Assembly (NCBI GenBank): GCA_038042445.1
Contig: JBBTED010000122.1
Span: forward strand, 1 to 31,975
Length of the DNA stretch: 31,975 bases
Source of the DNA: Candidatus Firestoneibacteriota bacterium
GTDB taxonomy: Bacteria; Oederibacteriota; D2-FULL-39-29; JBBTED01
Reading direction: 5' to 3'
Numbering within the stretch: position 1 is the stretch's first letter; each line of letters begins with the position of its first letter. Made by a program: the position numbers and the translations under genes. Positions 1 to 31,370 of this stretch are shown here, one piece after another. The notes beneath the pieces were generated by a model that did no database searches, had not been told where the DNA came from, and saw nothing but the letters and a program-made list of their open reading frames with translations.

Positions 1-515
1 AGTGCTTTTTTATTTGAAAATGGTTTTGCTGGAGATAACAACTTGGTATCTGATGATTTATGAATTACTTCAAAAATTGTTCTGATTTTTTCATCGTGTT
101 TTTCCACTTTTTCCTCAAGCTGATTTAACTTATAAATAACCTCTTTATTTGAAGAAACCAATTTTCTTATATTAACAAATACCCGCATAATACCTATATT
201 CACTTGAATTGCTCGTTTACTATTTAATATACTTGAAAGCATTGCAACACCCTGCTCTGTGAAAGCGTAAGAATAATATCTAACCCCGCCCCAACTTGAG
301 GTGCCAAATTGGCATCTCAAGTTTGTAAATTCTTCTTTGGTAAGTTGAAACATAAAATCTTCAGGAAACCTTTCGATATTCCTTTTGACTTGTCTCTTTA
401 ATTGAGATGTTTCCACTCCATAAAGTTCTGCCAAATCTCTGTCCAACATAACTTTCAAACCTCTTATTAAATAAATCTTTTTCTCTATTCTTTCCTGCGG
501 TATTAAATTTGGCAT
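1..515 (-). CDS. ORF6N-domain DNA-binding protein (3' end outside window)
   Basis: Not in the ORF track. Manual translation from ATG 515: MPNLIPQERIEKKIYLIRGLKVMLDRDLAELYGVETSQLKRQVKRNIERFPEDFMFQLTKEE...GG.RY..YAFTEQGVAMLSSILNSKRAIQVNI.IMRVFV, the typical ORF6N signature. SD AAGGGAG upstream. Frame stays open to base 1. Confidence 0.9.
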   Translation of the reverse strand, partial: MPNLIPQERIEKKIYLIRGLKVMLDRDLAELYGVETSQLKRQVKRNIERFPEDFMFQLTKEEFTNLRCQFGTSSWGGVRYYSYAFTEQGVAMLSSILNSKRAIQVNIGIMRVFVNIRKLVSSNKEVIYKLNQLEEKVEKHDEKIRTIFEVIHKSSDTKLLSPAKPFSNKKA

Positions 516-28073: not shown

Positions 28074-28424
28074 TGGTGGAGGCGGCGGGAGTCGAACCCG
28101 CGTCCAAAAGTGCGTCAGAACAGGCATACTACATACATATCCTTTGATTTAAATTTCGCATTATCCATCTCCCAAAGGCAGGATATGGCTAACACTATCT
28201 TGATAACGCTTCATCCTCTTTCCCTCAAGCGAAAAAAAGAGGACTATCCTGTTAAGCCGACTTTTGAAATTTTACAGGCAAAATTTCAAAAGCTTGACTG
28301 TGTTTAAGCAGCCAATGCTAACTGTTCGTCAGCGATTAAAATTTTTCCACTTGTTTTACGAGATAATGGAACCTCGGTATGCAGCCTGAACCTCAATCAC
28401 CCCTGTCGAAGCCCTTACGCCCCC
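28074..28424 (-). ncRNA. ssrA: tmRNA; tag peptide (A)ADEQLALAA
   Basis: 5' GGGGGCG...TTCGAC; 3' GCGGG-TTCGACT-CCCGC-CGCCTCC-ACCA with G3:U70; tag ORF GCT GAC GAA CAG TTA GCA TTG GCT GCT TAA at 28333-28304; downstream of smpB. Confidence 0.97.
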
Positions 28425-29435: not shown

Positions 29436-29987
29436 TTAACGAGGTAGAGTTATATTCTGCTGTGCCTGATATTTGCCTTTTTTATCAGCATAAGATGTTT
29501 CACATATTTCATCACTTTCAAGAAATATAAGTTGAGCTATACCTTCATTTGCATATATTTTTACCGGCACAGGTGAAGTATTTGAAATCTCTAAAGTTGC
29601 ATATCCCTCCCATTCAGGCTCAAAAGGCGTAACATTCACAACAACTCCACACCTTGCATAAGTAGATTTTCCAAAACATATTGTTATCACACTTCTTGGT
29701 ATTTTAAAATATTCAACAGTACGTGCAAGAACATATGAATTAGGCGGTATAATACAAACATCACATTTGACATCTTCCATTAATTTTAAATCAAAATTTT
29801 TAGGGTCGATAATTTTATTTTCTTTTGAATGAAATATTTTGAACTCATTAGAAATTCGAATATCATATCCATAAGAAGACAATCCGTAAGAAATTACTCC
29901 GGTTTTAACTTGCTTCTCTTCAAATGGCACAATCATCTTTTCCTCACGTGCCATTTTTTTTATCCACTTATCAGATTTAACAGACAT
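29436..29987 (-). CDS. dcd: dCTP deaminase
   Basis: [47 protein letters not shown]. Confidence 0.96.
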
Positions 29988-30051
29988 AATTTTTTACTAT
30001 GGTCTTGCGCTTAAAGGAAATGGTGGAACCATATTTTTCCACCAGACCATA
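29988..30051 (-). other. MVWWK element copy 3: uORF MVWWKNMVPPFPLSARP* inside a hairpin
   Basis: ATG 30050 ... CCA TAG TAA AAA ATT ATG(dcd). Nested stems TATGGTC/GACCATA and TGGTGGAA/TTCCACCA. Confidence 0.7.
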
Positions 30052-30069
30052 AAATTTTTGTTTAAGATA

Positions 30070-30144
30070 TGGCGTCCCCGACGGGATTCGGACCCGTGCA
30101 ACCACCTTGAAAGGGTGGTGACCTAACCGCTAGTCTACGGGGAC
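30070..30144 (-). tRNA. tRNA-Glu(TTC), CCA encoded, T-loop TCCGAAT
   Basis: GTCCCCG/CGGGGAC acceptor, CCACC-CTTTCAA-GGTGG anticodon arm, ACGGG/CCCGT T-stem, G73, CCA. Confidence 0.95.
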
Positions 30145-30154
30145 ACATTAAATA

Positions 30155-30227
30155 TGAGCCGGGCGCGAATCGGACGCGCGACACTCGCCTTAAAAGGGCG
30201 ATGCTCTACCAACTGAGCTACCGGCCC
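30155..30227 (-). tRNA. tRNA-Lys(TTT), CCA not encoded, T-loop TCCGATT
   Basis: GGGCCGG/CCGGCTC acceptor, GCTC/GAGC D-stem, TCGCC-CTTTTAA-GGCGA anticodon arm, GCGCG/CGCGC T-stem, A73. Confidence 0.95.
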
Positions 30228-30248
30228 GTATGACAAATTAGAAAGTCT

Positions 30249-30278
30249 ATTATAAATAAAAATACGTTTTTTTGTCTA
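30249..30278 (-). promoter_or_regulatory. sigma70 promoter of the tRNA-Lys/tRNA-Glu(-dcd) unit
   Basis: TAGACA-18 nt-TATAAT, 21 nt upstream of tRNA-Lys. Confidence 0.7.
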
Positions 30279-30329
30279 CTAAAATCGTGTGCCAGAGTGT
30301 AGTAATCGGGCATCCAGAGTCTTGTTTAA

Positions 30330-31370
30330 TCAATTTATTATGACCGGGTTATTTGAAATTTTGGGGTTTGATTTTTGTATTTCTCCAATTTGCCAAGCTT
30401 TCTCATTAAACTTATCAAGTTGAATTAATATATTTTTTACCTGTAATTTAGAAACTATCAATATCATTCCAATTCCCATATTAAAAACATCATACATTTC
30501 TGAATTACTGATTTTACCTAATTTCTGAAGAAATTTAAAAATCGGTGGTATTGTCCATGCACCTCTTTCAAGGACAGCATTTAACCCAGAAGGTAGTATT
30601 CTTGAAATATTTCCAGGAAATCCTCCTCCTGTTATATGTGCCATTGCTTTAATTGTAAATTTAGAACTTAATAAATGTGTTACTGATGTTAAATAACTCT
30701 TATGGGGTTTCAATAGTTCTTCACCAATAGTGCATTTAAGTTCTGATAAATATGCATCTACTTTGTATGTTTTTTTCTCAAACAAAAGTTTTCTCACAAG
30801 TGAATAGCCATTTGTATGTAAACCTGTTGAAGCAAGCCCTATGATTTTATCACCTGGCATTATAGTATTCCCATTTATAATTTTACCCTCTTCCACAATA
30901 CCCACTATACATCCTGCCAAATCATACTCGCCTTTAATATAAATACCAGGCATTTGTGCAGTTTCTCCACCAATTAAAACACAATTAGCTTTTTTACAGG
31001 CATAAGCTAAACCCTTAATTGTTTCTTTTACTACATTTTTATCCAATTTACTCATTGCAATATAATCTAAAAAAAATAAAGGTCTTGCTCCTTGAACCAA
31101 AATATCATTTATACAATGATTTACCAAATCTACACCAACTGTATCATATTTGTTCATCATACTTGCAATTTTTATTTTTGTCCCAACACCATCTATACTT
31201 GATACAAGAACAGGATTTTTGAAATCTTTGGATTTAAAACGAAACATTCCACCAAAACCCCCGAATTTGCCATAAACATTTTTATTGAAGGTGCTTTTAA
31301 CATATTCACCTATTTTTCTCTTTACAGCATCCCCAGCCTTTATATCTACACCCGCTTTTTTATATTGCAT
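30330..31370 (-). CDS. purM: Phosphoribosylformylglycinamidine cyclo-ligase (AIR synthetase)
   Basis: YKKAGVDI, GGFGG, DGVGTK, PLFFLDY, GGETA, GLHTNGYSL, HITGGG, FNMGIG. Confidence 0.97.
   Translation of the reverse strand: MQYKKAGVDIKAGDAVKRKIGEYVKSTFNKNVYGKFGGFGGMFRFKSKDFKNPVLVSSIDGVGTKIKIASMMNKYDTVGVDLVNHCINDILVQGARPLFFLDYIAMSKLDKNVVKETIKGLAYACKKANCVLIGGETAQMPGIYIKGEYDLAGCIVGIVEEGKIINGNTIMPGDKIIGLASTGLHTNGYSLVRKLLFEKKTYKVDAYLSELKCTIGEELLKPHKSYLTSVTHLLSSKFTIKAMAHITGGGFPGNISRILPSGLNAVLERGAWTIPPIFKFLQKLGKISNSEMYDVFNMGIGMILIVSKLQVKNILIQLDKFNEKAWQIGEIQKSNPKISNNPVIIN

Follow-up and report, generated by a model that had tools for sequence, protein, structure and literature searches.

Can a tRNA whose gene encodes cytidine in place of the conserved uridine 55 be a working tRNA and, if so, is position 55 used in the form in which it is encoded? 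The question arises from two tRNA genes in a 31,975-nucleotide stretch of DNA (hereafter, the window) of Candidatus Firestoneibacteriota bacterium (assembly GCA_038042445.1, contig JBBTED010000122.1; GTDB lineage Bacteria; Oederibacteriota; D2-FULL-39-29; JBBTED01), in the T-loops of which C55 was noticed on inspection of the sequence. U55 and pseudouridine 55 are described as conserved (PMC7912444, PMC10464925) and, along with the pseudouridine synthase TruB, are treated as near-universal tRNA features (PMC7912444), and the loss of TruB in Escherichia coli is stated to lower fitness (bioRxiv 10.1101/2023.11.11.566336). The original prediction offered two readings of the encoded cytidines, namely an undescribed system editing C55 to uridine or pseudouridine and a lineage-specific tRNA elbow with C55.

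The C55 tRNA genes of the window

The window is the whole of contig C122 of an assembly (G000 hereafter) of 2.81 Mb, 181 contigs and 31.9% GC. Three RNA genes, those of a tmRNA, tRNA-Glu(UUC) and tRNA-Lys(UUU), lie on its minus strand, as was found in agreement by ARAGORN and Rfam (Table 1). In the cmscan alignment the T-arms of tRNA-Lys and tRNA-Glu read GCGCG-UCCGAUU-CGCGC and ACGGG-UCCGAAU-CCCGU, respectively, with U54, C55, C56, G57 and A58 in both loops and the G53-C61 pair intact. No departure from the canonical form is seen in G18G19, in any of the four stems or in the anticodon loops, the 7/4/5/5 layout is present, and the minimum-free-energy folds of both tRNAs are cloverleaves; the scores of both exceed the RF00005 gathering score of 29 more than twofold. 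The conserved elbow set (G18, G19, U54, C56, A58 and the G53-C61 pair) is complete in both, and U55, which as the TruB substrate is expected of a canonical elongator tRNA, is missing from them, as well as from tRNA-Val(UAC) encoded elsewhere in the genome. The observation from which we started, i.e., C55 in two genes with intact stems, G18G19 and anticodons, accompanied by a tmRNA with an unchanged T-loop, is thus confirmed, the T-loop of the tmRNA retaining GGGUUCGACUCCC, i.e., UUCGACU. As to the 'good promoter' ascribed to the tRNA pair, there is a sigma-70-like site agreeing with the consensus at 11 of 12 positions; it is a consensus match only, and about one such site (1.1) is expected by chance in shuffles.

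C55 in tRNA-Lys and tRNA-Glu is real and is no sequencing artefact. At the level of assembled contigs, positions 29900-30324 are matched with 0 differences by a contig of the probable source run, and the C55 of tRNA-Glu is also present in an independent study's contig (X3, covering 30013-30130), the T-arm of tRNA-Lys lying outside the cover of the independent runs X3, X6 and X10. Moreover, C55 of the orthologous tRNA-Lys(UUU) recurs in six further class genomes, each assembled separately. The DNA of G000 was found in groundwater metagenomes, the 17 runs listed for it all being metagenomes represented by contigs. Since 3 of the 43 tRNAs of one genome have C55 at this conserved position, its occurrence is more than chance, and the earlier argument that a change shared by two different tRNAs is unlikely to be a random error is borne out by the agreement of the contigs and by the recurrence in relatives.

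Table 1. Location of the features discussed in the text; positions refer to the window unless another contig or locus is named
Feature	Position	Strand	Details
tRNA-Lys(UUU)	30155-30227	(-)	T-loop UCCGAUU; no encoded CCA; RF00005 65.9 bits
C55 of tRNA-Lys	30173	(-)	G on + strand; counted from 5' end at 30227
tRNA-Glu(UUC)	30070/30073-30144	(-)	T-loop UCCGAAU; CCA encoded; RF00005 64.5 bits
C55 of tRNA-Glu	30091	(-)	G on + strand; counted from 5' end
tmRNA	28074-28424	(-)	ARAGORN, Rfam 214 bits; tag ADEQLALAA; comparator, outside the variant
Sigma-70-like promoter, TAGACA-18-TATAAT	30249-30278	(-)	11/12, consensus match only; ~21 nt upstream of tRNA-Lys
Terminator-like hairpin with T-rich tail	30021-30044	(-)	consensus match only; downstream of tRNA-Glu
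dcd, dCTP deaminase	29436-29987	(-)	TIGR02274 170 bits; Pfam DCD and dUTPase; directly downstream of tRNAs
purM	30330-31370	(-)	TIGR00878 402.6 bits
ORF, 312 aa	7874-8812	(-)	no Pfam match at E<=1e-5
ORF, 564 aa	18272-19966	(+)	no Pfam match at E<=1e-5
ORF6N-domain protein	3-515	(-)	runs past contig start
tRNA-Val(UAC) with C55	C21:120020-120096		loop TCCGAAC; ARAGORN
infB-rbfA-DHH phosphoesterase-ribF	L125:2189-4105 (G000:C81, about 51188-53104)		truB-less junction
Class tRNA-Ile(GAU), G005	L146:1581-1657	(-)	beside tRNA-Ala(UGC)
Class tRNA-Ile(GAU), G004	L185:1584-1660	(-)	beside tRNA-Ala(UGC)
Class tRNA-Ile(GAU), G001	L215:1501-1577	(+)	beside tRNA-Ala(UGC)
Class tRNA-Ile(GAU), G007	L380		beside tRNA-Ala(UGC)

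The tRNA set and codon usage of the genome

ARAGORN detected 43 tRNAs in the 181 contigs of G000, 40 of them with U55 and three (Glu-UUC, Lys-UUU and Val-UAC) with C55. No second gene for any of these three was found in the 181 contigs either by ARAGORN or by a DNA search, which matched only other tRNA species, the claim of sole copies being bounded by an assembly that is 90% complete, has 2.2% contamination and comes without the tRNAs of the rRNA operon. The codon counts from 734 long ORFs are headed by AAA and GAA (72.6 and 51.1 per 1000, respectively), and GTA accounts for 21.1 per 1000, so that the C55 tRNAs serve about 14% of codons. Considering that they have no second copy and read the commonest codons, these tRNAs are to be regarded as essential working genes rather than pseudogenes; the original prediction, which held that the window genes do not look like pseudogenes and asked whether they are sole copies, finds further support in their intact folds and in the conservation of C55 in relatives. 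Nine other U34 tRNAs of G000 keep U55, and the variant therefore does not follow wobble or anticodon type. The presence of an encoded 3' CCA is mixed in G000: most tRNA genes, including that of Glu-UUC, have it, and about a dozen, among them Lys-UUU and three genes each for Gly and Thr, do not.

Position 55 in related genomes

The tabulation of position 55 in the orthologous tRNAs of relatives revealed C55 to be recurrent in the class (Table 2). In addition to the species listed there, C55 was found in Thr-GGU of G005 and in Ala-GGC of G001, and the C55 species of the class are Lys, Glu, Val, Thr, Ala and Gly. The C55 form of Lys-UUU is shared by three class families that diverged deeply, RibF being only 44-48% identical to that of G000. 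On a single-gene RibF tree with long branches, from which G007 and G012 were excluded (RibF missing or split), at least three changes at position 55 of this tRNA were counted by hand under parsimony. Between the Lys-UUU of G001 and its counterparts in the congeners G003 and G011, position 55 is the sole difference. As in tRNA-Lys and tRNA-Glu of the window, G18G19 is kept in all C55 tRNAs checked from the full sets of the relatives (8/8).

Table 2. Nucleotide at position 55 in orthologous tRNAs of the class and of its sister classes
tRNA	Class	Sister classes
Lys-UUU	C55 7/10 (G000, G001, G004, G005, G009, G010, G012); U55 in G002, G003, G011; gene not found in G006-G008	U55 13/13
Glu-UUC	C55 1/13 (G000 only)	U55 7/7
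Val-UAC	C55 2/7 (G000, G005)	U55 4/4 (G015, G017, G022, G080)
Gly-GCC	C55 2/7 (G002, G003)	U55 3/3 (G015, G017, G022)
Ile-GAU	A18 and G55, 4/4 where assembled	G18 and U55, 3/3
Thr-UGU	U55 4/4	C55 15/22, all truB-positive

Full tRNA sets were obtained with ARAGORN on the fetched loci, the counts being within one of the numbers of Rfam matches, and the T-loops were parsed from the ARAGORN output by a custom script. Among the genomes of the class, which have no TruB, tRNAs with a nucleotide other than U55 numbered 3 of 43 in G000, 4 of 40 in G005, 2 of 42 in G004 and 3 of 46 in G001, whereas in the TruB-containing sister genomes there were 1 of 45 in G015, none of 43 in G017 and 1 of 45 in G022. 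In total, this gives 12/171 for the class vs 2/133 for the sisters (Fisher p=0.027, kinship ignored) in 4 of the 13 class genomes and 3 of the 86 others, all being incomplete metagenome-assembled genomes (MAGs); for C55 alone the ratio of 9/171 vs 2/133 is not significant (p=0.12, kinship likewise ignored). In the truB-less class, C55 extends to a larger number of tRNA species (six, to which the G55 of tRNA-Ile is added) and shows visible turnover, the quantitative excess being only suggestive.

Both non-U55 tRNAs of the sister controls are Thr-UGU with C55. In the phylum-wide orthologue search, C55 was present in 14 of the 20 Thr-UGU genes from sister classes, or 15 of 22 with G022 and G017 added (C55 loci L391, L399, L404, L406-L410, L413 and L415-L419), and 13 of these genes, belonging to many genera of family f11, have the identical T-arm ACCGG-TCCGATT-CCGGT. 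As these genomes are truB-positive, C55 is independent of truB loss and is tolerated in the phylum; the Thr-UGU tRNAs with C55 would escape TruB despite the presence of the enzyme.

A different change was observed in tRNA-Ile(GAU) of the class, in which the T-loop is UGCAAUU and the D-loop AGUUAGUUA, A18 being combined with G55. Both partners of the near-universal 18:55 tertiary contact are altered in this tRNA, and G55 is compensated within the genome by A18.

TruB and other T-loop modification enzymes

None of the 13 class genomes, which are 80-98% complete and 1.7-3.0 Mb in size, yielded the TruB_N domain (PF01509), vs 81 of 86 genomes from the remainder of the phylum. The five misses outside the class fall on genomes that are 65-86% complete, each with family members carrying truB, and in the control genomes the domain was detected in 14 of 14. 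In G000, TIGR00431 gave no match at E<=10, and four sister-class TruB proteins compared by blastp with all stop-to-stop ORFs of at least 50 aa produced a best E of 0.27. The gene order in G000 is infB-rbfA-DHH-ribF, in which the spacer between the DHH phosphoesterase gene and ribF is 30 bp long, thus indicating a clean absence of truB and no assembly gap; in the sister-class genome G030 truB lies between DHH and ribF, and G015 has truB-ribF. In the other class genomes ribF is beside neither DHH nor rbfA, and the clean-deletion argument therefore covers G000 only. Judged by the gene content of the 13 genomes examined, the whole class lacks TruB, which is the loss that the original prediction had proposed to check for. 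Downstream of ribF in G000 come a DNA methylase gene and a MutH-like gene.

Pus10 (TIGR01213), described as absent from Bacteria (PMC7912444), was likewise found in 0 of the 13 class genomes. With TruB and Pus10 both missing, no known enzyme could form pseudouridine 55 in the class. TruA is retained in G000, and the sole PF00849 synthase of this genome is an RluD-like protein of the RluA family, 306 aa long and with no extra or deaminase domain.

As to the methylation of U54, the search for TrmFO in G000 yielded only a 59-bit partial match, far under the cut-off, in a 625-aa frame which we take to be MnmG. No dedicated TrmA was found in G000, its single U5-methyltransferase scoring as RlmD. 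Among 41 relatives, TrmFO was present in five, all of family f5, and TrmA in none, so that, of the 15 families sampled, a single one has dedicated m5U54 enzymes. The loss of these enzymes as a trait specific to the class was rejected on these phylum-wide counts. Because m5U54 enzymes are rare across the phylum, most of these bacteria may have an unmethylated T54.

C55 as a probable functional element of the tRNA elbow

Taken together, the data make it probable that the Lys, Glu and Val-UAC tRNAs are products of working single-copy genes, in which the encoded C55 is most likely used as C and a G18-C55 contact replaces that of G18 with pseudouridine 55. This corresponds to the lineage-specific C55 elbow of the original prediction, in favor of which are the inheritance of C55, its recurrence in orthologous tRNAs of relatives and the fact that it is carried by tRNAs which have no second copy and read the commonest codons. 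Uridine and pseudouridine use an O4 acceptor and an N3-H donor that cytidine does not possess, and the hydrogen bonding between G18 and C55 must therefore differ. Aminoacylation and function with C55 are presumed from the sole-copy status of the tRNAs and from codon use. The occurrence of C55 in Glu-UUC of G000 alone, i.e., in 1 of 13 class genomes, counts against this reading.

The following sequence of events may be proposed. C55 would stay unedited, the tRNAs being used as transcribed, in a phylum whose elbow would be permissive, considering that m5U54 enzymes are found in one family of 15. The loss of TruB could then have taken away the last reason for keeping U55 as an enzyme substrate, so that, with the constraint weakened, more tRNA species would leave U55 and drift to, or settle on, other states. 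Weighing against truB loss as a simple cause of C55 are the Thr-UGU tRNAs with C55 in truB-positive genomes and the non-significant excess of C55 counted alone. One can go further and suppose, with considerable reserve, that after the loss of all known T-loop modification enzymes (TruB, Pus10, TrmA and TrmFO) the nucleotides 18 and 55 became a freely co-evolving pair (G-U, G-C or A-G), C55 in the most used tRNAs being an adaptive encoded substitute for pseudouridine 55. If this were true, the class would constitute a natural experiment on the purpose of pseudouridine 55 and TruB.

The closest competitor of the reading of C55 as a tolerated, lineage-specific state is positive selection for it, either as a hard-wired stand-in for the stabilising pseudouridine 55 or as a means to alter the elbow surface against a nuclease, an integrase or a phage factor. 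The preservation of C in a genome with 32% GC suggests selection and not pure drift, and in Lys-UUU it extends over the three diverged families mentioned above; the C55 of Thr-UGU, with its identical T-arm, is conserved over many f11 genera, the variant in G000 falls on the tRNAs of the two commonest codons, and the A18/G55 co-variation shows the 18:55 contact to be under selection. Nevertheless, the flip between U and C in congeners that is accompanied by no other change looks nearly neutral, as does the scatter of C55 across Lys, Glu, Val, Thr, Ala and Gly; no nuclease, integrase or toxin gene was found near the tRNAs of the window, and a consistent link to the anticodon is contradicted by the nine U34 tRNAs with U55. 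Considering these facts, we regard positive selection as a possible but rather unlikely cause.

The editing hypothesis and the neighboring genes

Post-transcriptional conversion of C55 to uridine or pseudouridine by an undescribed enzyme would account for the C55 tRNAs being essential and otherwise canonical. C-to-U and C-to-pseudouridine editing are known at other tRNA positions, CDAT8 acting at C8 and TrcP at C32, and editing of this type needs a dedicated enzyme of the CDA fold. A search of the G000 ORFs of at least 50 aa with a regular expression for the CDA zinc motif retrieved two ORFs only, corresponding to TadA (171 bits, above the cut-off) and a ComEB-like dCMP deaminase; by this criterion, a CDA-fold RNA deaminase, either alone or fused to a pseudouridine synthase, was not found in the 90% complete genome. 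As the RluD-like synthase has no added domain either, no candidate enzyme for editing was found.

A dCTP deaminase gene directly downstream of the tRNAs might seem to favor editing. Next to the tRNAs lie purM and dcd, both recognized at the equivalog level, and after them come a PilZ-domain gene and smpB. The product of dcd was rejected as the editing deaminase, being an ordinary nucleotide enzyme, and its position beside the C55 tRNAs looks like a coincidence, with no RNA deaminase involved. Similarly, the AIRS-domain gene, considered as selD in view of the link of 2-selenouridine to Lys and Glu tRNAs, proved to be purM. The nearest relatives of this purM show at most 56% identity and are scattered among an unclassified MAG, Abditibacteriota, Patescibacteria and Dehalococcoidia.

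Further evidence against editing comes from the absence of detectable TruB and Pus10 in 13 of 13 class genomes, and from the alternation of U55 and C55 between otherwise identical tRNAs of congeners, which would make editing pointless; in addition, the G55 of tRNA-Ile is offset in the genome itself by A18. Transcripts of the C55 tRNA-Gly of Lactiplantibacillus plantarum are reported to function as C55 in vitro (PMC10464925). Editing of C55, the first of the two readings in the original prediction, is thus very improbable. Still less credible is the notion of decaying pseudogenes or of assembly and binning errors: G000 is admittedly a MAG of 181 contigs with the completeness and contamination given above, but the cloverleaves are perfect and score in Rfam at over double the gathering threshold, the assembly contains no other gene for Lys-UUU, Glu-UUC or Val-UAC, the contigs bearing C55 tRNAs share the GC content of the genome, the base agrees in source-run contigs and, for Glu, in that of an independent study, and C55 orthologues are present in six other assemblies.

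Comparison with known systems

In open-access text, natural C55 or truB-less free-living bacteria were represented only by the cases of L. plantarum and Mollicutes. In the former, all tRNA-Gly species except GCC have a natural C55, which is called unusual since U55 pairs with G18, and C55U variants are glycylated equally in vitro (PMC10464925). The tRNAs analyzed here resemble these tRNA-Gly species in being bacterial elongator tRNAs with encoded C55, canonical G18G19 and a canonical remaining T-loop. The difference is that in L. plantarum the feature belongs to one amino-acid family in one Firmicute, whereas in the present case a single genome has it in Lys, Glu and Val, and a TruB-less class as a whole has six C55 species along with the G55 tRNA-Ile. 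The word 'TruB' does not occur in the text of that paper (PMC10464925).

The loss of TruB was published for hemoplasmas, Mycoplasma genitalium and Mycoplasma pneumoniae (PMC4014445). The two cases are alike in that an entire bacterial clade has lost a pseudouridine-55 synthase which is otherwise near-universal. However, these Mollicutes are host-bound parasites with genomes below 1 Mb, whereas the genomes of the class measure 1.7-3.0 Mb, TruA and RluD are retained, and the DNA of G000 was found in groundwater. In open-access text we found no account of bacteria that have genomes of ordinary size and are truB-less throughout a class, no tRNA-Lys, -Glu, -Val or -Thr reported with C55, and no mention of the A18/G55 pair.

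The tRNA-Pyl of Desulfitobacterium hafniense has a G13-C55 contact and keeps the L-shape (PMC7609411). As in that molecule, C55 of the tRNAs considered here would take part in an alternative contact linking the D-loop with the T-loop. tRNA-Pyl has no G18, G19 and T-psi-C (PMC7609411); in contrast to it, the present tRNAs keep G18G19, U54, C56 and A58 and differ at position 55 only.

The likeness to CDAT8 and TrcP editing consists in a gene encoding C where U is conserved, but the dedicated CDA-fold enzyme was not found here, and C alternates with U among close relatives.

The class examined thus comprises bacteria with ordinary-sized genomes, no TruB being found in any of the 13 examined, and G000 decodes its commonest codons with C55 tRNAs. 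The natural pairs of tRNAs differing only at position 55 provide a testbed for the roles of U55, pseudouridine 55 and the TruB chaperone in folding, stability and decoding. From the practical point of view, C55 should not count against a gene of these lineages in tRNA-gene finders or pseudogene filters.

Other features of the window

Two further ORFs of the window, encoding 312 and 564 aa, gave no Pfam match at the threshold indicated in Table 1. At the very beginning of the contig, and running past it, an ORF6N-domain protein is encoded, the ORF6N domain being phage-associated.
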